DNA of 63,845 nt from Chloroflexia bacterium (lineage in GTDB: Bacteria > Chloroflexota > Chloroflexia > QHBQ01), in assembly GCA_038229595.1 (NCBI GenBank), contig JBBROH010000003.1, forward strand, positions 1-63,845, given 5' to 3'. How positions within the stretch are numbered: position 1 is the stretch's first letter; each line of letters opens with the position of its first letter. Under the pieces are notes generated by a model. It saw only the letters and a program-made list of their open reading frames with translations, had not been told where the DNA came from and did not search any database. The translations under genes were made by a program, and so were the position numbers. Positions 864-37,644 of this stretch are shown here, one piece after another.

Positions 864-3779
864 TTAGGGGGCGGGCGTGCCAATGCGGCGGGCCAGTTCG
901 TCGAGGGTGCGCTTGAGTTCGGCCTGCGCCTGACCGTAAGTGGCGAAGTCGTTAGCGCGCAAAGCAGCCTGGCCGCGCTCGTACTGCTGCTGGGCGAGGC
1001 TAACTAGCTGCGGTGCGCTGAGGGTGGCGAGGTCGGTGCCACCCGCGATGGTTGGTTGGGGGGCGGCGGTCGGCTGCGGGCCGGGGGTGCCGTTCGCGGT
1101 TGGCGTGCCGGTACCAACACCAGTGCCGGGCTGCTCAATCGCGCTACCCTGCCCACTGAGTAGCTTGTTGATCGCCTCGTCAAAGGTGCTAGCGATAGTC
1201 ACCCGGTTGGTGCTAGCGACGATCACATACTTCAGTTCGGGCTGCGGGTTCTGCTCGGCGGTAACGTAGAGCGGCTGCACGTAGAGGATCGACTGGCCGA
1301 TGGGCAGGACGAGCAGGTTGCCCAACTCTACATTGGAGCCTCGTTGCCCCAGGAGGGTGCGTAGTTGAGAGATGCTGGGGTCCTGGTTGGCGCGGGCGAC
1401 CACCTGTTGGGGGCCGCTCACCTGGTTGCCAGCCGGGAAGCGGATCACTACGATCTTGCCATAGTCCGCTCCATCGCTCTTGGCCGCCATCCAGGCCGTC
1501 ATGTTCGGCTTGCCCGCGGGGGTGAAGGGCAGCAGCAGCAGGAAGGACTCGCTCTCGTCACCACGTAGCTTCATGATGTTGTAGTAAGGCTCCATGCCGC
1601 CTGCATTAGCGTTGCGGTTGCGGTTGGGCGTGCCGTCGGTGGCAACAGTCCAGGGGTCTTGCCGCCGCAAGAAGACCTGTGGCTCGGTCATGTGGTATAG
1701 TTCGAGCGTCTGCGCCTGCACATTAAAGAGCAACTCTGGGTAGCGCACGTGGGCCACCAGGTTCGCTGGCATCGCCGAGCGCGGCTTGAACAGGTCGGGG
1801 AATATCTTGCTGTAGGTCTTGAGGATCGGCTCGTTCTCATCGAAGGCGTAGAAGGCCATCTTGCCGCTGTAGGCATCGATCACCACCTTCACCGAGTTGC
1901 GGATGTAGTTGAAGCCGCCAATGGTGCCAGTGTACACCGTTGCGTTGGGGTAGCGGTCGCTGATCGTGTAAGCATCGCGTATCCAGTACAGCTTGCCGTC
2001 GGCGATCACCAGGTAGGGGTCGTCGTCGTAGAGCAGGAAGGGAGCGACCAGGTTGGTCATCTGCTGCACATCGCGGTTGTAGAGGATGCGGCTATCGTCC
2101 TTGAGCGCATCACTGAGCAGGATATTACCGTCGCCAAAGTGGTAGGAGTAGAGCAGCTTCTTCCAGTAGGAGTCAAGGGCCACCCCACCGCTGCCTTCAT
2201 AGCCGCCGCCGAGGGTGTTGGTTGCTGTAGTCGTGCTGCTGAGGCTGCCAGTACTGCTGATCACCCCTTCGTTGCCCTGGAACACGGTGGCCGTCGTCTT
2301 GACGAATACATAGTCGTCGGTTTGCAGGCCGTAGTAGATTTCGGGGCGGCTGAGGTTGAGGTTGGGGTAGCTGCTGACGGGGGGGATGTCGCGCACGAAC
2401 AGGCGCGGCGACCCTTCGCCTACCGCCTCGTTGACTGGGCTGAGGGCTACACCCAGGCCGTGGGTGTATTGCAGGTGGCGGTTCGGCCAGTTGAGGCCGT
2501 TCACCTTGTTCTGATCTAGTTCGCGGGCGGCTAGCATCACCTGGCGGTAGTCGCTGCCGAGGGTGTAGCGATCAATCGTCACTTCGCTGAAGTTGAAGTA
2601 GGTGCTGATCGCCTGCAACTGCTGGTAAGACTGCTCAAGCTGGCGGTAATCCCAGAGGCGCACGTTCTTGACTGTCTGCGGGCTGGCAGCGAGGTCGGCG
2701 CGGGTCAGTTCTGCGGTTGGCCCTGGTCGTTCTTCGATGATGTCGAGGTTGAAGGCAGAGCGGGTTGCCTTGATGTTGTTGTCAGCGTACTTGCTCTCTT
2801 TATCGAATATGTTGGCGTTGACCTGGAACTGCTGTACAAAGGTGGGGTAGACCCCGCCGACCAGGATCGCCACCAGCAGCCACGCGCCCAGGGAGTAGAG
2901 CGGCAAGCGATAGTTGCGCGAACGGATGGTTAGCAGGAGGGTGAGGGCAACCAGGATCACGACTACCAGCAGTATCCAACTGGCGGTGATGCGGGCGTTC
3001 TCATCCGTATAGCCAACCCCGGCGAACGCGGTGCTGCCTTCGCGCTGGTTGAACAGCAGCTTGTAGCGGTCAAGGAAGTAGCCGAAGGCGAAGGTGAGCA
3101 ACCAGAGCGCACCGAGGATGGTCAGGTGGGGGCGGGCTGCTGCTGGCAGGTCGATCTGCGGCAAGCCAAGCTGGTTGAGCATCGTCTCTGGCGACCCATC
3201 CTCGGCCAGGCGACGGGCGGCAGGGCGGGTTACGGTCGGCATTGTCAGGCGGCTGCCAACCGCATAGACGGCAATCACGGCTACGCCAGTAAACAGGATC
3301 AGGCTGCTAATCCAGCCGCGCAGGTCGTCCAAGAAGGGCAGGGTGAAGACGTAGAAGCCAACATCCTGCTGAAATATGCGGTCGGGGCTGCCACCAAAGG
3401 GGGTGGCGTTGAGGAAGCGTAGCACCGTCACCCACTCGCCGCCAGCAGCGAGACCGAAGAAGATCGCCAGCACCAGCGTGGCCGCCCAGATTAGCTGGCG
3501 GATCGACCCTGCACTGAGGGTCGCCTGCTGGCCCTCGAATATCTGCCCCGGCGTGCTGTTGCGCCGGGCCACCTGGAGGTTGACGGCCAGGAAGATCGCC
3601 GCCAGTATGGTACCCGCGATGCCCACCAGCCATTGGGTGGTGAAGCGGGTAATGTAGACCGAACTAAGCGACTGGCTATCGAACCACAACCAGTCTGCTG
3701 CGATATTAAAGATCAGGGGCAGGCCAAACAGCAGCACTGCCACAACGACAGCAATCGGCACCCATATCCTGGGTCGCAT
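864..3779 (-). CDS. UPF0182 family membrane protein
   Basis: 971 aa; DWLWF near the N-terminus, several TM segments, DVGFYVFTLP, NVRLWD, YTHG, YIRNSVKVVIDAYSG, GNLLVLP, PELKYVIV motifs. Confidence 0.92.
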   Translation of the reverse strand: MRPRIWVPIAVVVAVLLFGLPLIFNIAADWLWFDSQSLSSVYITRFTTQWLVGIAGTILAAIFLAVNLQVARRNSTPGQIFEGQQATLSAGSIRQLIWAATLVLAIFFGLAAGGEWVTVLRFLNATPFGGSPDRIFQQDVGFYVFTLPFLDDLRGWISSLILFTGVAVIAVYAVGSRLTMPTVTRPAARRLAEDGSPETMLNQLGLPQIDLPAAARPHLTILGALWLLTFAFGYFLDRYKLLFNQREGSTAFAGVGYTDENARITASWILLVVVILVALTLLLTIRSRNYRLPLYSLGAWLLVAILVGGVYPTFVQQFQVNANIFDKESKYADNNIKATRSAFNLDIIEERPGPTAELTRADLAASPQTVKNVRLWDYRQLEQSYQQLQAISTYFNFSEVTIDRYTLGSDYRQVMLAARELDQNKVNGLNWPNRHLQYTHGLGVALSPVNEAVGEGSPRLFVRDIPPVSSYPNLNLSRPEIYYGLQTDDYVFVKTTATVFQGNEGVISSTGSLSSTTTATNTLGGGYEGSGGVALDSYWKKLLYSYHFGDGNILLSDALKDDSRILYNRDVQQMTNLVAPFLLYDDDPYLVIADGKLYWIRDAYTISDRYPNATVYTGTIGGFNYIRNSVKVVIDAYSGKMAFYAFDENEPILKTYSKIFPDLFKPRSAMPANLVAHVRYPELLFNVQAQTLELYHMTEPQVFLRRQDPWTVATDGTPNRNRNANAGGMEPYYNIMKLRGDESESFLLLLPFTPAGKPNMTAWMAAKSDGADYGKIVVIRFPAGNQVSGPQQVVARANQDPSISQLRTLLGQRGSNVELGNLLVLPIGQSILYVQPLYVTAEQNPQPELKYVIVASTNRVTIASTFDEAINKLLSGQGSAIEQPGTGVGTGTPTANGTPGPQPTAAPQPTIAGGTDLATLSAPQLVSLAQQQYERGQAALRANDFATYGQAQAELKRTLDELARRIGTPAP

Positions 3780-5231: not shown

Positions 5232-5720
5232 TCAAGTGCTGTGGTGGATGATATGGATGTGCAAGGTAGCCGGGTCAGCCACGATCAGCCCCTCATAGCC
5301 GCCCACACACGTCCCCTTGTAGTGGTTAAGCACTGATATGGCAACGGCTGGCATACTGGCATAGGGCTGGCAGGCACCGATGAAGGTTCCCTCGCTACCA
5401 TCAGCGGGGCGCAACTGCTCTACATACCGCTGAAAGTCAGAGGCAGGCAGGGCAAAGTCTGCCTCAAAGTACCAGTCGGTGAATTGCTGATAGCTAAGTT
5501 TGATTGCCCCCGCACTGGCTGGTACTGGCTGCGGCGAGTAGTCGTTCAACCACTTGAGTTGCTGAGCCGGAGTTAGCTGCCCCTCATCGAGGCTGGTGCC
5601 AGCCAGCAGGTTGAAGCCCAGCCAGGTCATCAGCCCCAGCACCAGCAGGCAGCCGCCTGCCAGCAGCCCAACAATGAGCAAGAGAGGACGACGGCTGCTG
5701 CGACTACTGCTCTTGAGCAT
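5232..5720 (-). CDS. Hypothetical membrane-anchored protein
   Basis: Basic N-terminus plus hydrophobic helix, then soluble domain; ATG at 5720 chosen over 5774. Confidence 0.6.
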   Translation of the reverse strand: MLKSSSRSSRRPLLLIVGLLAGGCLLVLGLMTWLGFNLLAGTSLDEGQLTPAQQLKWLNDYSPQPVPASAGAIKLSYQQFTDWYFEADFALPASDFQRYVEQLRPADGSEGTFIGACQPYASMPAVAISVLNHYKGTCVGGYEGLIVADPATLHIHIIHHST

Positions 5721-14866: not shown

Positions 14867-15238
14867 TCACCGCTCGAAGTTGTAGTCCAACGCGTTGCCC
14901 ACCAGCGCACGGACGATCTGCCAGAGTAGCCAGCCGACCACCAGGGCAGCAAACCAGGAGAGGAAGTCGGTCAGCAGTGGCACGATCTGCAACCCCCCCT
15001 GGGTGAGGTAGGCAAAGGGGAGGCCGCGCACGATGTTTGCGCTCAGGCTGGCCTTCACGCCCGCTGTTGTTGCTGCTGCCTGCAACTGGGCCAGCCCCGC
15101 ATCGTCGCAGACCTGCCTGTTCAGCCCGGCCTGAGCAAAGTAGCTGGTACATTCCCAGCGGCCAAGCAACAGGCTCGCTGCCGTCAGCCCCACTGCTAGC
15201 AACAGGACAGTGATTAGGAAAGATTTACGGATCATCAT
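14867..15238 (-). CDS. Small hypothetical membrane protein, paralogue of the upstream ORF
   Basis: N- and C-terminal TMs; W-x-C...VC-x-D...N-x-x-RG-x-PF shared with 15235-15705. Confidence 0.65.
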   Translation of the reverse strand: MMIRKSFLITVLLLAVGLTAASLLLGRWECTSYFAQAGLNRQVCDDAGLAQLQAAATTAGVKASLSANIVRGLPFAYLTQGGLQIVPLLTDFLSWFAALVVGWLLWQIVRALVGNALDYNFER

Positions 15239-15705
15239 AAGTGGGCTACTCCACCACACGGCGTTAGGATGCTATCATCATACCACATGGGTGCAAGCGG
15301 GGTTAAGCTGGCGAAGGTTTTGGGGTCGAGGATGCCAGTCAGGGTCAGGATGTACCAGAGGAGGACGACGCAGAGCAAGTAGAAGATAAAGTTGCCAAAG
15401 GTGGCAGGTAGGGTGGTCAGTTGCAGTTCGTCGCTGTTGGTCATGACGAAGGGGAAGCCGCGGTTGACGTTCGGCTTCATCTTGCTGCCCTCCAGCGCGT
15501 TAAGGCTCGCTTGCGCCTGTATCTGGTCGAACTGCTCGTCGTTGCAGACAGACGCATCCAGATCGCTACCAGCAGCCTTCGTCTGGGTGAAGTAGACCTT
15601 GCACTGCCAGGTACGCACCACCATGCTGCTGAGGGTGAGGGTGAGGGCGATCACCGCTGCCACGATCAGCATCCCCGTCTTCAACTTGGGCGGCGTTAGC
15701 TTCAT
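15235..15705 (-). CDS. Small hypothetical membrane protein
   Basis: 156 aa, two TMs, stop overlaps the next start. Confidence 0.65.
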   Translation of the reverse strand: MKLTPPKLKTGMLIVAAVIALTLTLSSMVVRTWQCKVYFTQTKAAGSDLDASVCNDEQFDQIQAQASLNALEGSKMKPNVNRGFPFVMTNSDELQLTTLPATFGNFIFYLLCVVLLWYILTLTGILDPKTFASLTPLAPMWYDDSILTPCGGVAHL

Positions 15706-29058: not shown

Positions 29059-29166
29059 GGTGCGCCAGCAGCAAAGCCGCGCGCCCAGACCGTGCTGTTC
29101 GGGCGGTTTGCTGGGCGGCCCTTCCCAAGCTAGTTGCCAGCCATTATACTTAGGGCAGGGGGCAGC

Positions 29167-30138
29167 ATGAGCGTAAAGTGGTCGTACTCGGCGGATGGGA
29201 CGCGGCGGCGGTGTCAGCGGCAACTGGCTTACAACCAGGTGGTGGCTTCGCACAACGCTCGCGATAGCTTGCGCCGCGAAGTCTACGTCCTCAAGCAGGT
29301 GCAGCAGGTGCGGGCCTGGCAGGGCAGCCTCGTGCATGGCGTGTTGGCGACCACATTCCTCGGCTGGCTGCGGGTGCGCCAGCAGCCTGACCCCGCCGTG
29401 CTGACTGCGCTTGCGGTTGCGCGGGCGCGGCGGCAGTTCGCCTTCTCTGCTGCTCAACGCTATCGCCAGCCGACTAGCAAGGCGAGTGCGGGTGACGACT
29501 ATGGTGCGCTGTTTGAGCATGAGTTTGGCTCAACCCTGGCGGTCAGCGACCTGGGGCGGGTGGAGGAGAACATCGCCACGGCCTTCCGCAACCTGGTTAG
29601 CCAGCGCGAGTTGCTGGCCGAACTCTATGGGGGCTGGAACCAGCGCAGCGAGTGGCCGCTGCGCCTGGTGCAGGGTGGTATGGCGGTTAGTGCTAACCTC
29701 GACCTGATTAGCTTGCGCCAACGGGGGGAGCCGACCATAGTGGACTGGAAGGTGTCGGAGAGCGAGAGCAGCGACTACGCTCGCCAACTGCAAGTCTACG
29801 CCTGGGCCTTGATTCGCAGTGGCGGCTGGCCGCAGGAGCGAGCCGAGCAGCTTAACCTCTACGAAGTCAACCTGCTCAAGAACCTCGTCCACAAACATCC
29901 TTTTGATGCTGACCGCTTGGCGGAGACGGAGGGGTTTGTTGACGAAGGGATTGCTGCCTTGCGCGCGGTGCTGGGCGAGGGCCGCTACGAAGCTGACTTG
30001 CTGGCCCGGCTGCCGATTGCCGAGCAGGAGCAAGCCTGCCGCTACTGCCCCTATCAACGCCTCTGCCCGCAGCAGCTATCTGCCGAGGGTCGGCCCCAGG
30101 AGGCGCAGATTGTGCTTGAGCGGGTGGCTGGGGGCTAG
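29167..30138 (+). CDS. PD-(D/E)XK nuclease, RecB/AddB/Cas4-like
   Basis: GSLVHG, ANLDL...IVDWK, QLQVYAWAL, N-terminal Cys plus C-terminal CRYCPYQRLC. Confidence 0.8.
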   Translation: MSVKWSYSADGTRRRCQRQLAYNQVVASHNARDSLRREVYVLKQVQQVRAWQGSLVHGVLATTFLGWLRVRQQPDPAVLTALAVARARRQFAFSAAQRYRQPTSKASAGDDYGALFEHEFGSTLAVSDLGRVEENIATAFRNLVSQRELLAELYGGWNQRSEWPLRLVQGGMAVSANLDLISLRQRGEPTIVDWKVSESESSDYARQLQVYAWALIRSGGWPQERAEQLNLYEVNLLKNLVHKHPFDADRLAETEGFVDEGIAALRAVLGEGRYEADLLARLPIAEQEQACRYCPYQRLCPQQLSAEGRPQEAQIVLERVAGG

Positions 30139-31265: not shown

Positions 31266-31412
31266 TAGCCTGGCTGAGATTACTACCTGACTGGCTGCCA
31301 CCTCTTGCGGGCGGGCTGGCTCGCGCTAACCGCTGGCCTGCAGCCCCCACGCAGGGAGGTTAGCGCAGCACACCACTGGCAAGATTAGCTACGAAGCGCA
31401 GCGGCCAGGGTA

Positions 31413-31440
31413 TTGACAACCGCCAGAAGTGTGCTATAAT
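31413..31440 (+). promoter_or_regulatory. Consensus sigma70 promoter
   Basis: TTGACA-N16-TATAAT with extended -10 TGc. Confidence 0.7.
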
Positions 31441-31684
31441 GCTGCTGTCAGTAAGATAGGTTAGGTTCAGGCACGTGCGTTCGGCTATGCCCCTGAATAC
31501 ACAGAGGGAGTAGGCTATTCTTACAAGGACAATCGTATTCCTCCGTGGCGACGAGATCAGCCCGCAGCAACTCTTACCAACGCGCAGTTGCTAGCAGCCT
31601 CGTACACGACCAACACGCTTGCCAGCTTTGTGGTCGGCAACAACGACCCTGGCAAGCCTGTGCATACACCCTCCACTAGCGTAG

Positions 31685-31831
31685 TTGGGAACTACACGAA
31701 GAACCAAAACCCCGACACGAACAGCAACAGCGACGTGTACAAGAACACCTACTACAACGGCCACAAGAGTATTTACTCCAACCGAGGCAACCATCTCGAC
31801 AAGAACACCAACAAATACTTCAGTACACTAA
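31685..31831 (+). pseudogene. Remnant Pro/Thr linker of a secreted protein
   Basis: One frame reads TKTPTRTATATCTRTPTTTATRVFTPT...TRTPTNT, like the linkers of the SLH and RHS genes in this window; flanked by stops. Confidence 0.35.
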
Positions 31832-31849
31832 GCAAAGGAGCTTGAAGTA

Positions 31850-32971
31850 GTGGATGATCACACCCATAATCCCGATGCTGCTAAGGCTTGTAGAAGTACC
31901 ACAATTGGCTGGCTCTTGCCTATTGTCTTTGTTGCTCTTGTAATTGCTTTGCTGCTTGTTTATGTACTCGTGGTCAGAGTAGGGGGCCAAGTCTCAATCT
32001 CTGCTTCTCCCAAAAAGATGTGTGTAACCGCCGATGCAACTCATGTTCAAAGTGCTGCTGGTTACAGGTTGGAGAAGTTGCAAATGCTCTCACCAAGTGA
32101 AGGCTGGGCAGTAGGTAGTAGGAATGGCGTAGATGTTTTCCTGCATTACTATAAGGGCAATTGGGCAAGCCTTCCTATCCCTGCTAATGTGAATCTACAC
32201 AGCGTTAGTATGATTTCTGCTACTGAGGAATGGGCGGTAGGTGACGAAGCGTTCGTACATTACAAGGATGGTTGCTAGATTGATGCTGGTAGACTAGGAG
32301 ATTTTCCACATGGGCCATCTGTGTATCTAGCACTTAATAGCGTAGTTATGATTTCAGCCACGGAGGGATGGGTTGTTGGTGATGGTGTTAGCGCACATTA
32401 TGATGGGAACTCATGGACAGAAGTAGCCAGTCTCAAGAACTACAATCTCAGAGACATAGCGATGATTTCGAAGGACGAAGGCTGGGCTGTGGGGAGTGAC
32501 ATACTTCATTACAAAGAAGGACGTTGGGCGGTGACAAACAATGGCACTACTGGATTTGGCATCTCGATGCGCTCTCCTCTTGGTGGTTGGGCTGTGGGAG
32601 CCAACACGATCCTGCATTACAAGAACAACAACTGGGTTCCAGTAATTAGTCCCACTAGCAAGCACCTAAACAGTGTTAGCTTTATTTCACAACGTGAAGG
32701 TTGGGCAGTAGGAGGTAATGTTCGCTATGGTGGTAGTGACAGCATTATCGTTCATTACAGAGATGAAACTTGGACTGAGGTGGCTAATCCTACTAATTTT
32801 ATACTCATAAGTGTGTACATGAACTCTGTTAATGATGGATGGGCGGTTGGAAATGGCGTAATTCTCCATTATACAGGTGGCAAGTGGGTGGATGCCTTCG
32901 GCTCCGCTACAAGGATTTGGATAATAGCTCATGCACATCATGACTGCGCTTCACCTCCTCGCCCAGCTTGA
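31850..32971 (+). pseudogene. Membrane-anchored beta-propeller (WAVG...HY-x-G-x-x-W repeats) split by one in-frame TAG
   Basis: ORFs 31850-32278 and 32321-32971 share a frame; TAG at 32276 falls at the repeat Trp position (HYKDGC*); the 3' end is also disrupted; low GC. Confidence 0.7.
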
Positions 32972-33098
32972 ACATCGTCGCCACTGCCCGATCCACCATC
33001 AGCGGCCTGAACTCCTCAATCGCGTCGTAAACCAGACTTTTCTTGCCGTTGCGGTCGGCGTGGATGAAGCCATCGTAGGAGTCAGGCCCCGCCCGCTC
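32943..33098 (-). pseudogene. cas1: CRISPR-associated cas1 internal fragment
   Basis: ERAGPDSYDGFIHADRNGKKSLVYDAIEEFRPLMVDRAV matches the Cas1 GLDPY-x-GFLH...SL-x-x-D-x-x-EEFRP-x-x-VDR catalytic segment. Confidence 0.75.
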
Positions 33099-33406
33099 AA
33101 GCTGCTTCAGCACCAGGTCGCTGTCACCACGCACCTCGATCTGCCACGCGCTCGGTTGTTGGCCTGCCGCTTCGATGCGGGGGGTAATGTCTGCCAGCCC
33201 AGCAATCAGCGACCTGTACTCGGCTTCGTTGTTGGTGCCGTAGCCAAAGTCCAGCCTGCTCACGACCTCAACCGGCGCGGTAGGCCATTCGCCGTCCGCG
33301 CCCGGCACGAACAGGGCGTAGCTGCCGTAAGAGTGGCCGGGTTGGGTTCGGCTCCACCGTCGAACCAGATCACAATCCGCTGCTGCGGGTTGATGATGTT
33401 CGCCAT
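33099..33406 (-). pseudogene. Ribonuclease HI, frameshifted and 3'-truncated
   Basis: IWFDGGAEPNP, then a frameshift near 33336, then TNNEAEYRSLIAGL...VRGDSDLVLKQL; AAAGGAG RBS; upstream TCGACA-N17-TATAAT. Confidence 0.75.
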
Positions 33407-33519
33407 TTTGCTCCTTTGTGCAGTTTCGCCATCTGCCGCTACTCTATCGCTGCGTGATACCTGTAATCTCTATTATAGTCACGCAGACCACGCTTGTCGA
33501 GGTTGGTAAACTCAGCGCG

Positions 33520-33557
33520 GGTTCAATCGCTCAACCGCGATCATATCCCCCTGCAAC
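33520..33557 (-). CRISPR. Single CRISPR-like direct repeat (no array)
   Basis: GTTGCAGGGGGATATGATCGCGGTTGAGCGATTGAAC: GTTGCA start, ATCGC/GCGAT hairpin, ATTGAA(A)C-like end; about 420 bp from the cas1 fragment. Confidence 0.4.
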
Positions 33558-33718
33558 CGCCTCGGTCAGATTGTGACCATCAAAGCTTGCAACGGCAAAC
33601 ACCACCCTGACTCACCGATGCTCATAGTTCTAGTTATAATACAGAAGCAAGTTAATTACAAAATGAAGCAGGCGCACTGCCGTGAGCAGATGCGCCCATC
33701 TTGTTCTCCGGGCCGGAT

Positions 33719-34813
33719 TTAGCGGCGGGTCAGCAGGCTGTGTTGGTGTCGGTGCAGAGCGAGGAGCAGCAGCCCACCAACAAAGGCGACAGTACCCAGC
33801 AGTAGCCCCCAACTGTCGAGGTCACTAGCCATGCTGCTGCCAGTCTTGGGCAACATTGGCTGGTTGCCAGCACTAGCCTGGGCAGCAGCGGCAGCGGCGA
33901 CCCTGCTTTTCTCAGCGGGCATGATGGTGGCGGTGTAGGTAGTCATCTTCCCGCCCTCCACCACAGCTGTGATCTGGAACTTCACCGGAGCGACCCCCAG
34001 GTGCTGGAAGGCATCGTTGGTAACGAGGGCGGACGCGGTTACGTTGTTGCCGTCCACCTGGGGGCTGCCTTCGAGTGTGTGTTGCACCTTGTGCGCCACG
34101 GCGTAGTCTAGTGCCTGGCGCAGTTCAGCCTTCCCGCTCCAACTGCCAGACGTGCCTTGCGGGGCGGGGATGATCTTCTGCACCGCATTGTCGGCGTAGA
34201 GAGCAAGCGCAGCATCGGTATCCTGCCCGTTCCCGATCATCCTCTCGAAGTTCGTCACCACCGAGGCGGGGTCGCTGGTCTGCTGCGGCTGGGTGGCAGT
34301 TGGCTGGGTGCCTTGTGCAGCAGCAGCGGCAGCAACACGGCGGCCCTCAGCGGGGGCAATGGTAGTGCTGTAGGTGGTGATCTTGCCGTTCTCGATCACG
34401 GCTTCAGTCTGAAATTGCACCGGAGCAACGCCCAACCGCTGGAAGAAGTCGTTGGTTGTCAACGTTGCGACCGCAACCGTGTTGCCATTCACTTGTGGGC
34501 TACCGTTGAGGGTGTGTTGCACCTTGTGCGCTACGGCGTAGTCCAGACCTTGCCGGATTTCGTCCCGCCCGGTCCAGAGGCCGGAAGTGCCTTGCGGGGC
34601 AGGGGTGATCTTCAGGGTGGCGTTGTCCGCGAACATAGCCAGAGCGGTATCAACATCCTGGGGGCTGCCGATAATCTGCTCAAAGGCAGTCAGCACGGCA
34701 ACGGGGTCGGTAGTCTGCTTGAGCGGGGCCGCACTGCTAAGGCGGGCCGAGCCTGCGATAACGATCAGGGTCAGCAGGGTTGCCAGCACGTAGCTGAGGT
34801 TTATAGATTTCAT
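33719..34813 (-). CDS. Secreted LPXTG-anchored protein with two tandem SnoaL/NTF2-like domains
   Basis: Signal peptide; two ~135-aa internal repeats (DP-x-x-V...ALA-x-(F/Y)ADNA...LDYAVAHKVQHTL-x-GSPQV...GK-x-TTY); LPKTG plus hydrophobic and basic tail. Confidence 0.75.
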   Translation of the reverse strand: MKSINLSYVLATLLTLIVIAGSARLSSAAPLKQTTDPVAVLTAFEQIIGSPQDVDTALAMFADNATLKITPAPQGTSGLWTGRDEIRQGLDYAVAHKVQHTLNGSPQVNGNTVAVATLTTNDFFQRLGVAPVQFQTEAVIENGKITTYSTTIAPAEGRRVAAAAAAQGTQPTATQPQQTSDPASVVTNFERMIGNGQDTDAALALYADNAVQKIIPAPQGTSGSWSGKAELRQALDYAVAHKVQHTLEGSPQVDGNNVTASALVTNDAFQHLGVAPVKFQITAVVEGGKMTTYTATIMPAEKSRVAAAAAAQASAGNQPMLPKTGSSMASDLDSWGLLLGTVAFVGGLLLLALHRHQHSLLTRR

Positions 34814-35030: not shown

Positions 35031-37644
35031 TTAGTGTGAGATCGGGCTATCGGTAGGGACGGGTACATTGAGGGCGTAAGCAATCGCCTGGGCCACGCTC
35101 ATCCTGCGCCCTGCGGCCCAGGCAGCCTCGAACTCTGCATCGCTCATTTGCGGGCGGGCTACCACCAGGATGCGTTCACTCTCATCTCGTTCAAAGGGCT
35201 TTGCCAGGGTACGCAATGCCTCGCGCAAGGCGGCAGCGGCCCCAAGCAAGTGTACCGCCTGCCGAGCCTGACCATGAGCAACGCACAACGAGGCGAAATC
35301 GGCCAGGTAAGGAGCGACCCAAACCCCGCCTTCCGTTCCCTGTTGCATTCTAATAGCCTCGCTAAAGAGATCGTGGGCAGTGTGGTAGTCGCCCCTATCC
35401 CTGGCAACCCGACCCAGCCCGGCGAGGGTAGAGGCTACCCACACCTTGTCGTCCAGGACACGGCTGATGGTTAGGCACTCGGCCAAAGCCTCCTGTGCGG
35501 TCGCATAGTCACCGCTCAAGCGCGCACGTTGCCCCTTGAAGAACAGCAGTTCGGCGAGGATTGAAGTGTTGCCCACGGCATGGGCAATGGCGATACCCTC
35601 GGCCACATACATACTGGCGGCCTCATGATCTCCCTGAACGTAGGCAACCGTGCTGAGGCGGCTGAGACCGACCGCTATGCCCCAGTGGTCATCCAAGCTA
35701 CGCTCGATCACAAGGGACTGCTCAAAGCGCGAACCAGCAGCCTGGTAATCGCCCTGGTAGAACAGCACGATGCCGAGGTTGAACAGGGTTTCAGCAACCC
35801 CGCGCTCGTCCTGCAACTCGCGGCGAAGGGTCAGGTTTGCTTCGTGCAGCGAACGCGCCGCCGCAATGTCGCCCTGCTCGAAAGTCAGCACTGCCATGCA
35901 CGGCTTTGGCGCGGTCAATGGGAGCAGCAGCACTAGCCTGGGCCAAAGCAGCCGCCAGCCAGCGGTGGCCCTCATTGATGTGGCCGCGCATCACCCAGAA
36001 CTGCGACTGTACGCCTGCCAACTGCAAGGCTGTCGCTGGCTCATGATTCAGCAGCCAACCCAGAGCCAACGCAATGTTGTCATGTTCGCGCTCCAGCCGC
36101 TCTAGCCAGCCGCTCTGCTGGGGGCCACGCAACCCCGGTTCAGCTTGCTCGGTGAGGGCTAGATAAAGGTGAGCGTGGCGGTGGCGCATTTGCTCCTCCT
36201 CACCACTTTTCGCCACCATTTCGCTACTGAACTGCCGCACGATCTCCAGCATGGAGTAGCGTACCACCCCAGCCTGCTCGTTCATCTGCACTAGTGACTT
36301 GTTCACCAGCGCAATGTGGCCGATCAGCACATCGTCCGCTTGCAGCTTATGCTCAAAAGCGGCTGCTTCCGGGTAAGTTGCAGCCTGCGCTTGCTGATCG
36401 TCAGGTACGGGGTCGGGACAGATCACTTCGGCGGCTTCAAGGCTCCAGCCACCGGCAAAAACGGCGAGGCGGCGCAGCAGTGTGCGCTCAACTGCACCCA
36501 GCAGGTCATAGCTCCATTCGATTGAAGCGCGTAGGGTTTGCTGACGGCTGGGTGCGGTGGGATCACTGCTGTGCAGCAGCCGCAAGCGATCATCCAGACG
36601 GCGGGCCAGTTGCTCTGGACTGAGAACCTTGACCAGCGGTGCGGCCAATTCGAGGGCAAGGGGGATGCCCTCAAGCTGTCGGCAGATCCGCAGCACACTG
36701 GTAGTGTTGCGCTCGTTTAGCCGAAAGCGGGGCAGTGCGGCCCGCGCTTGATTGACGAACAAAGTGACCGCCGCGTACTCTTGCGCCTCGGTACTGGATA
36801 TTTGCGTGCTGGTCGGCAGTGAGAGGGGGTTCAGCCGCCACTCGTTTTCACCCGCAACCCCCAGCGGTTCGCGGCTGGTGATGACGATGCGAACGTGGAC
36901 ACAGGTTGTAAGTAGCAACTTGACCAACCCGGTGCAAGCGGCAAGCAGGTGTTCGCAGTTGTCCAGCACGAGCAACAGCTTGCGGGGGCGCAGCCAGTCA
37001 ACCAGCGTCTCGCCAATGCTACGCTCCGGCTCCTCGCGCACCCCCAGCACGTTGGCAACCGTACTAACTACCTGCTGGTCGTCGGTTAGTGGTGCAAAAC
37101 CAACCAGCCAGCAACCGTCTGGGTAGTCGGGCAGCAGCCGGGCGGCCAGTTCGATGGCAAGGCGGGTCTTGCCCATCCCGCCCGCCCCAATGATACTCAA
37201 AAGCGGCGTGCCTGTCAGCAACCCTGCTAGTGCGGTGATCTCCTGTTCGCGCCCAACGAAGATAGTTGTTTGTAGCGGTAGATTGTTGCCGTTGTGTTCA
37301 AGCTGTGCCTGACTAGCCTGGTTGAGGGGGGCAAGCTGGTCAAGGGGGGATGCGTGCCACTCCGCCGGTGTGAGGGGTGTACAGCCAAGCAAAACCAGGA
37401 GATCGATGGCCTGGGCTTGCGTTTGCAGCGCACCCCACTTTGCCAGGGTACGCACTACCGCTTGGGCATTAGCGCAACTTAGCGACTGCTTACCGCTACC
37501 GTTCAGCCGCCTGCTTAGTTCAGCCCGGCTTAGGCCAACAGCCTGGGCCAAATCATCTACGGTCGGACGGCGATCATCGGCAAAGGGACGAACGCTGTGG
37601 TAGAGGTGTTGTACCCGTTCACGAAAGGTGTTAAGGTCATACAT
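35031..37644 (-). pseudogene. HTH - NB-ARC (STAND) - TPR regulator, frameshifted
   Basis: N-terminal HTH-like DLAQAVGLSRAELSRRLNG, GAGGMGKT, LLVLDNCEH, GIPLALELAA; frame switch near 35892 (AKAVHG / VLTFEQGD). Confidence 0.8.

Follow-up and report, generated by a model that had tools for sequence, protein, structure and literature searches.

In the 63,845-nucleotide (nt) stretch of Chloroflexia DNA that we call the window, a piece of an RNase HI gene runs in frame into a piece of cas1, and a single CRISPR repeat stands upstream of both. In our opinion the region of 31.3-33.7 kb that holds these pieces is most probably a non-functional mosaic scar of CRISPR-Cas DNA, left by several rearrangements. 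The pieces trace to different CRISPR systems and not to one clean deletion, because the repeat is of type I-D, the cas1 piece is of another type, whose closest relative adjoins a reverse transcriptase (RT), and the sister species has its copy of the RNase H paralog at the border of a type III-B locus. A preliminary description, made from the letters of the window and correct to the base in what it observed, had proposed the footprint of a deleted CRISPR-Cas locus. Its first half we would keep, as this does look like non-functional CRISPR-Cas debris; its second half, that the debris comes from one locus, does not fit the mixed origin of the pieces. The window is contig C3 of a bin of 318 contigs (4.25 Mb, 62% GC, 87% complete), and below we write G000 for this genome, G001 for its sister species and G002 for a member of another genus of the same family. 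The features of the scar are collected in Table 1.

Table 1. Features of the scar and its immediate surroundings (positions in the window)
Feature	Position	Strand	Basis
CRISPR leader copy with promoter, 133 nt	31311..31443	plus	93% identical to the leader of the C52 array
Low-GC island	31450..32950	plus	~45-48% GC; 44-50% in 300-nt windows; genome 62%
Open chimeric frame, 133 amino acids: RNase H middle, Cas1 relic and unrelated tail of 16 residues	32907..33308	minus	
Cas1 relic, ~50 codons, residues 232-281 of a Cas1 of 346 amino acids	32952..33101	minus	Pfam, NCBIfam, tblastn
RNase HI paralog pseudogene, codons 1-103 of 147	33099..33406	minus	tblastn, DNA alignment, tree
Sigma-70-type promoter-like site, TCGACA-17-TATAAT	33472..33500	minus	11/12 consensus positions
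Single 37-nt CRISPR repeat, type I-D repeat family	33521..33557	minus	alignment to the C94 repeat
Intergenic AT-rich DNA, 50% GC	33558..33718	minus	GC count

The homology to RNase H stops, and that to Cas1 starts, at one and the same leucine codon (33101-33099), without a change of frame; the in-frame passage from KQL to ERAG into the His/Asp segment of Cas1, as first read from the letters, is therefore real. Residues 66-117 of the open reading frame (ORF) that crosses the junction match Pfam Cas_Cas1 at profile positions 203-254 of 283 (E 7.8e-14; 51.9 bits against a cut-off of 22.3), and the NCBIfam cas1 model is matched with E 2.4e-12. The relic was mapped by tblastn with the nearest full-length Cas1, from G002:C268, to which it is 66% identical. 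Homology to the Cas1 family (PF01867) is thus clear, while a full-length two-domain protein with a Glu-His-Asp metal site is not there: the relic consists of the helical segment with the conserved catalytic His and Asp, and the N-terminal domain, the region of the catalytic Glu and the C-terminus have all been lost. Neither further pieces of Cas1 nor cas2 or an RT were found by tblastn in any frame of the window. Beyond 32952 the chimeric frame simply continues for its 16 unrelated codons into the low-GC island. Protein searches with the chimera returned the ORF of the window itself, ordinary RNase HI proteins and one Cas1 of 402 amino acids (66% identity); no homolog of the chimera was found among the 5.8 billion proteins searched.

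The intact Cas1 proteins of the host genome belong to its type I-D (C94) and type I-C (C194) systems, and the relic is only 40-44% identical to them at the protein level. The closest Cas1 (66-67% identity) is the one from G002:C268, which fits the generic Cas1 model only and adjoins cas2 and an RT resembling those of group II introns.

The other half of the chimera is a broken gene. The segments 33406..33335 and 33344..33099 match, in two different frames, residues 1-24 and 22-103 of P0001, an intact RNase HI of 147 amino acids, with 75-78% identity (tblastn). An ATG at 33406 opens the RNase H-like frame and the register is lost after codon 23; a three-way DNA alignment with the paralog on C64 and the sister-species copy places a deletion of one nucleotide between 33342 and 33341, so the frameshift suspected at the outset is confirmed. 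In the same alignment the homology is gone after the KQ(L) codons. The last 44 residues (104-147) could not be found in the window, and the only match to this 3' end in the assembly is a separate, intact paralog on C64. What is left is nevertheless recognizable, with the Asp of an N-terminal FDGG, the Glu of NNEAEY and the Asp of RGDSD, and it has an insertion of 7 residues in common with the housekeeping copy of this genus. That the family is RNase HI follows from P0001, which matches PF13456 at 6e-11 as well as NCBIfam RNase HI models; the ORF of the window itself gives weak NCBIfam RNase HI matches (2.6e-5 to 1e-3). Owing to the deleted base and the loss of residues 104-147, no intact frame crosses the full catalytic domain. 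The window copy is about 20% divergent from every other copy, 77% identical to C64, and the block that it has in common with the sister species starts at 33457.

It would seem impossible for either half to retain its activity, since the RNase H is frameshifted and lacks its C-terminal third and the Cas1 lacks its N-terminal domain and the region of the catalytic Glu. The adjacency of RNase H and cas1 presumably reflects the positions of the breaks and not an operon.

One may object that such a chimera is a product of metagenome assembly, a contig stitched together from different loci or strains. Indeed, the host genome is a bin in many contigs and not quite complete, exact-sequence look-ups found no independent assembly with either the chimera or the neighbouring SnoaL protein, and the leader copy near the left end of the scar shares long exact runs with the C52 leader when compared by eye (the longest run was not computed). 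However, a misjoin in a de Bruijn graph requires a shared exact word. No sequence identical to either side of the junction is present in the rest of the assembly, as the identities to C64 on one side and to the Cas1 proteins of C94 and C194 on the other show, so that no shared k-mer could bridge it. The RNase H part differs too much from every other copy to be a mis-joined copy of a known locus, and GC content is even across the junction (61-63%). Misassembly is possible but, in our judgement, unlikely to the point that we give it very little weight.

We now turn to the repeat. Its alignment with the 37-nt repeat of the C94 array runs over the full length of both; about 29 of 37 bases agree and both termini are kept, and so the repeat of 37-38 nt seen in the preliminary description stands. 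The C94 array, with at least 32 repeats, is placed after a type I-D operon consisting of Csc2, Cas3 helicase, Cas4, Cas1d (above the curated cut-off) and Cas2; the other real arrays of the host genome are on C52 (9 repeats) and C10 (8 repeats). A search of the repeat against the rest of the genome was the check proposed for it, and this I-D array proved to share its repeat family. The two repeats agree in their first 7 bases and in blocks of 8 and 12 bases; they differ in the 5' third, in two bases of the loop and by one A that is missing from the 3' handle of the lone repeat. The same 6-bp hairpin folds in both. A 22-nt block at the 3' end, common to the two repeats, occurs with up to two mismatches in 9 of 41 related genomes and always in arrays or solo units, while a control with the reversed pattern gave 0 matches; hence we regard the lone unit as a CRISPR repeat and not as a chance match.

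It is also a solitary one. The unit is the sole significant repeat match of the window (E 0.005), and neither 33300-33720 nor the window as a whole holds more than this one repeat-like unit, that is, there is no array. The heptamer GTTGCAA (33593-33587), which the preliminary description had listed 29 nt ahead of the repeat, is not supported as a second repeat: together with these 29 nt it reaches an alignment score of 3, no better than nearby coding sequence or the opposite strand (in the same alignment the RNase H coding region scores 5 and the plus strand 3). Another candidate, about 95 nt downstream, was likewise aligned to the C94 repeat and rejected, the scores of the candidates being 3-4. 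The exact variant of the lone repeat occurs in no array of two large collections, one of genome contigs and one of metagenome contigs, which leaves two possibilities, a mutated copy or the final unit of a type of array that has not been sampled. A looser search with a 22-mer gave one isolated match, in an unrelated metagenome-assembled genome of Pyrinomonadaceae and not in an array.

Could the lone repeat nonetheless be a working element that resembles a CRISPR RNA (crRNA) and serves the I-D system as a regulatory RNA or a decoy, as has been described for standalone repeats and mini-arrays? Several observations speak for such a role. The hairpin is kept and all changes lie outside its stem, AT-rich DNA lies upstream, and the host genome has two more isolated I-D repeat units (a solo repeat on C283 and a mini-array on C22 upstream of a large methyltransferase gene). 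Standalone repeat-like sequences have moreover been catalogued, and loci of type I-D frequently contain such repeats (Shmakov et al. 2023, bioRxiv 10.1101/2023.03.03.530964). On the other hand, a regulatory crRNA-like mini-array in the sense of that study consists of an intact repeat, a spacer-like sequence that is partly complementary to the promoter of a cas or cargo gene, and a degraded distal repeat. Here no second, degraded repeat is detectable, and for neither flank was there a credible target, at a cas promoter or anywhere else (the best match, on C88, has 16 nt and E 0.02). The unit further lies outside any cas locus, its 3' handle is one base short, and it is not conserved in the sister species. 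We think it improbable, and by a wide margin, that the unit works in this way.

The two further isolated units are worth recording in their own right. On C22 at ~3657-3760 (locus L041), a full I-D repeat precedes a 37-nt spacer and a further repeat that breaks off after 28 nt; next come a -10-like box and the start of the gene for an Eco57I/PglX-like DNA methyltransferase of 1258 amino acids. Regulatory crRNA-like elements ahead of cargo genes have been described with this layout; no target of the spacer was found in the host genome. On C283 at ~2211-2247 of the minus strand (locus L042) a perfect solo I-D repeat, preceded by AT-rich DNA and followed by a hairpin, has neither a spacer nor a second repeat. 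No targets of either unit were found near cas promoters.

The remaining parts of the region add to its patchwork appearance. The leader copy matches not only the C52 leader but also that of the G001:C27 array, an array type linked to III-B, and no array follows it in the window. It points into the low-GC island, which sits between it and the Cas1 relic, and it may drive the ORFs there; these are beta-propeller-like (31850-32278 and 32321-32971) and represent one gene split by a stop. At the other end, the promoter that the preliminary description had assigned to the RNase H frame is indeed present as a promoter-like site, 66 nt upstream of the start codon and outside the block in common with the sister species. 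The AT-rich, leader-like stretch noted at ~33600-33670 is likewise real (38% GC against 62% in the genome), and the AT-rich DNA also contains, at 33681-33667, a terminator-like hairpin of the upstream SnoaL/LPXTG gene.

All of the mosaic pieces are located where synteny with the sister species ends. To the left of ~31302 the window is collinear with that species at 91-93% identity, and past this breakpoint G001 continues with DNA that in the host genome is found on contig C24; from ~31302 to the right end of the window the sister species offers just matches of 71-84%, that is, at the level of paralogs. As collinearity stops there and the right side has only such matches, the mosaic sits at a synteny breakpoint, on the edge of a variable region. 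In total, fragments of at least two and probably three systems, together with a copied leader and foreign DNA, are piled up at this one breakpoint. Reconstruction of the ancestral locus from the sister species failed, with the left flank diverting to DNA of the C24 type and the right flank giving only paralog-level matches. We had also considered whether the lone repeat is a remnant of an I-D array of the G001 type. In G001 the homologs of the regulator and SnoaL genes come after its I-D array, but that array lies on the side of the regulator gene away from the lone repeat, so the homologs do not identify the repeat as what is left of it.

How might such a region have come about? We envisage several events of illegitimate recombination or deletion in a flexible region that formerly held CRISPR-Cas DNA. 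The sequence shows that a lineage-specific RNase HI paralog was severed behind codon 103, fused to codons ~232-281 of a cas1 gene and deprived of one base near codon 23; that the cas1 piece was cut again at ~32952, where the foreign low-GC island starts; and that of the arrays just one I-D-family repeat and the duplicated leader of a different array remain. The strong promoter may still drive a junk transcript. If the lone repeat is transcribed, it could be bound or cut by the I-D Cas6 of the cell, because the hairpin of the Cas6 type is kept, although it would have no spacer to deliver.

Certain points do not sit comfortably with an entirely non-functional scar, and they should be weighed here. 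The junction is in frame, which by chance happens one time in 3. Some expression of the RNase H frame is likely, judging from the near-consensus promoter and the ribosome-binding region that precede its start. None of the differences between the lone repeat and that of C94 falls on one of the 12 positions of the hairpin stem; we estimate a chance of about 3% for this with some nine changes, which hints at a function or at descent from a distinct working array. The RNase H paralog is found beside CRISPR DNA in every context in which we saw it (the window, G001:C27 and two metagenome contigs), and those two contigs have different outer flanks. Finally, the order of events cannot be reconstructed, the genomes of the host and its relatives being fragmented assemblies.

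The recurrence of the paralog beside CRISPR DNA leads to another explanation of the chimera, which builds on the suggestion of the preliminary description that RNase H was an accessory gene of the adaptation module. The RNase HI paralog would be a genus-specific accessory gene of CRISPR-Cas islands, duplicated and recruited there, and the chimera a trace of a former neighbourhood of rnh and cas1. The enzyme might clear RNA:DNA hybrids that arise from type III transcript targeting or from RT-linked uptake of spacers. The paralog would travel with the CARF/Csx15 end of a III-B locus, in this genome up against cas1, with the scar as its last trace. We consider each of these propositions, the accessory status, the role and the travelling, to be improbable, even if somewhat less so than a working lone repeat.

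Part of the evidence is favourable. The paralog clade, which unites the copies of the window and G001:C27 with the metagenome proteins P0001 and P0002 (support 0.89), is distinct from, and sister to, the housekeeping RNase HI beside ileS. In G001:C27 and on two metagenome contigs, Ga0123336_10017671 among them, the paralog comes last and adjoins the CARF-TM, Csx15 and CARF genes of a type III-B (Cmr) locus, and the locus of the G001:C27 type has an array of its own. A block of 99% identity ends 85 nt upstream of the paralog, and the outer flank of the gene, where it lent itself to comparison, differs between G001:C27 and Ga0123337_10005429 (and this window). The closest Cas1 of the relic adjoins an RT, as said, and digestion by RNase H has been discussed as a possible step in spacer uptake by RT-Cas1 (bioRxiv 10.1101/2023.09.01.555893).

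In our opinion the evidence to the contrary is heavier. We looked in relatives for rnhA inside cas operons and found no RNase H near any of 15 cas1 loci of the host genome and its relatives (one of them from the unpublished genome G012, which enters the analysis nowhere else). Csx15 is present in 73 of 401 genomes, and at 30 such loci in other Chloroflexota no RNase H lies within 1.5 kb. The adjacency to cas genes is thus seen in one genus only, so that the observations are not independent, and it does not recur in diverse loci. Moreover, the neighbour of the paralog in the sister species is the effector or CARF side of the locus and not the adaptation module. A survey of accessory genes of type III systems does not mention RNase H in its main text (PMC6546367), and a term count in the full text of a preprint on CRISPR-linked genes gave zero mentions (10.1101/270033). 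The paralog is broken in 3 of the 5 copies seen: those of G001:C27 and Ga0123337_10005429 have an internal deletion of 49 nt, which starts a few bases from the break in the window, and that of the window is frameshifted and truncated. P0002, one of the two intact copies, has a Glu in place of the first catalytic Asp. A functional link between the paralog and CRISPR is therefore unlikely, and a role for RNase H as an accessory of the adaptation module is not supported. We thus return to the mosaic scar as the preferred explanation.

Independently of this question, the paralog is polymorphic in close populations, with copies at L013 (G001:C27) 14956-15306, L058 8001-8392 and L036/L056 284-727; one metagenome contig carries an intact allele of 147 amino acids, while the sister genome and another contig share the 49-nt deletion.

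It is instructive to compare the pieces with their known counterparts. The scar resembles the degenerate or orphan CRISPR units and cas pseudogenes that decaying CRISPR-Cas loci leave behind, among them the standalone repeat-like sequences of Shmakov et al. (2023): its single, partly diverged repeat is of a family for which this genome has a working array, and it neighbours a piece of a cas gene within a variable region that contains foreign DNA. It differs from those units in that the repeat is outside an intact cas locus, without a second degraded repeat or a promoter target, and has neighbours from other CRISPR types. The relic aligns to the alpha-helical catalytic segment of the Cas1 integrase with the conserved His and Asp (the nearest solved structure is Archaeoglobus fulgidus Cas1, PDB 4N06), but it keeps only ~50 of ~346 residues and has no cas2 partner. 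Similarly, the window copy of RNase H has the three motifs of type 1 RNase H (nearest solved structure, the RNase H domain of Mycobacterium tuberculosis Rv2228c, PDB 3HST), but its frame shifts after codon 23 and it breaks off after codon 103, and unlike the housekeeping enzyme beside ileS it belongs to a clade that sits beside CRISPR DNA. The chimera is formally similar to RT-Cas1 and Cas4-Cas1 fusions, since in it, too, Cas1 sequence is fused in frame to the domain of another nucleic-acid enzyme. However, those fusions contain a complete Cas1 and are conserved across many genomes, whereas here a 50-residue piece is joined, on this contig alone, to a broken partner.

For annotation this means that the frame of 133 amino acids, which gene callers report as a Cas1-domain protein, should be treated as a pseudogene chimera and not be counted as a Cas1, a Cas1-solo or a new fusion. 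The region shows the decay of CRISPR-Cas DNA in good resolution; it adds a case to a known phenomenon and is not a new kind of system. The host genome still runs I-D, I-C and III-A systems in addition to the scar, and the one lead of broader interest is the RNase HI paralog that borders the III-B locus in the sister species.

With regard to type III, an early idea that the host genome had lost all of these genes was rejected on account of its csm (III-A) genes on C297 and C244. Homologs of the cmr genes of G001 are missing from it or fragmentary. There is further cas debris in the host genome at a pair of places (loci L039 and L040): on C45 at ~5366-5581 a Csx15 fragment lies beside a fragment with a SAVED domain, and on C87 at ~1897-2125 a Cmr1 fragment adjoins a Cas6 gene.

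Several genes flanking the scar, some of which look damaged or remodelled themselves, deserve a brief description. The SnoaL-domain gene upstream (33719-34813, minus strand, stop at 33719) encodes an LPXTG protein with an LPKTG sorting signal; it contains an internal tandem duplication with a period of 435 nt and 71-72% identity, and the sister-species homolog, of 221 amino acids, has a single domain. The STAND NTPase/TPR regulator further on (35031-37644, minus strand) is divided into frames of 617 and 314 amino acids that overlap by 185 nt. As the sister species has one gene of 878 amino acids in its place, the regulator is probably a frameshifted pseudogene. To the left of the scar, in the conserved syntenic part, there is a PD-(D/E)XK nuclease of 334 amino acids (29134-30138, plus strand) with a Cas4-like Cys-rich C-terminus, which matches Pfam PDDEXK_1 at 1.3e-15, with Cas4 below the cut-off.

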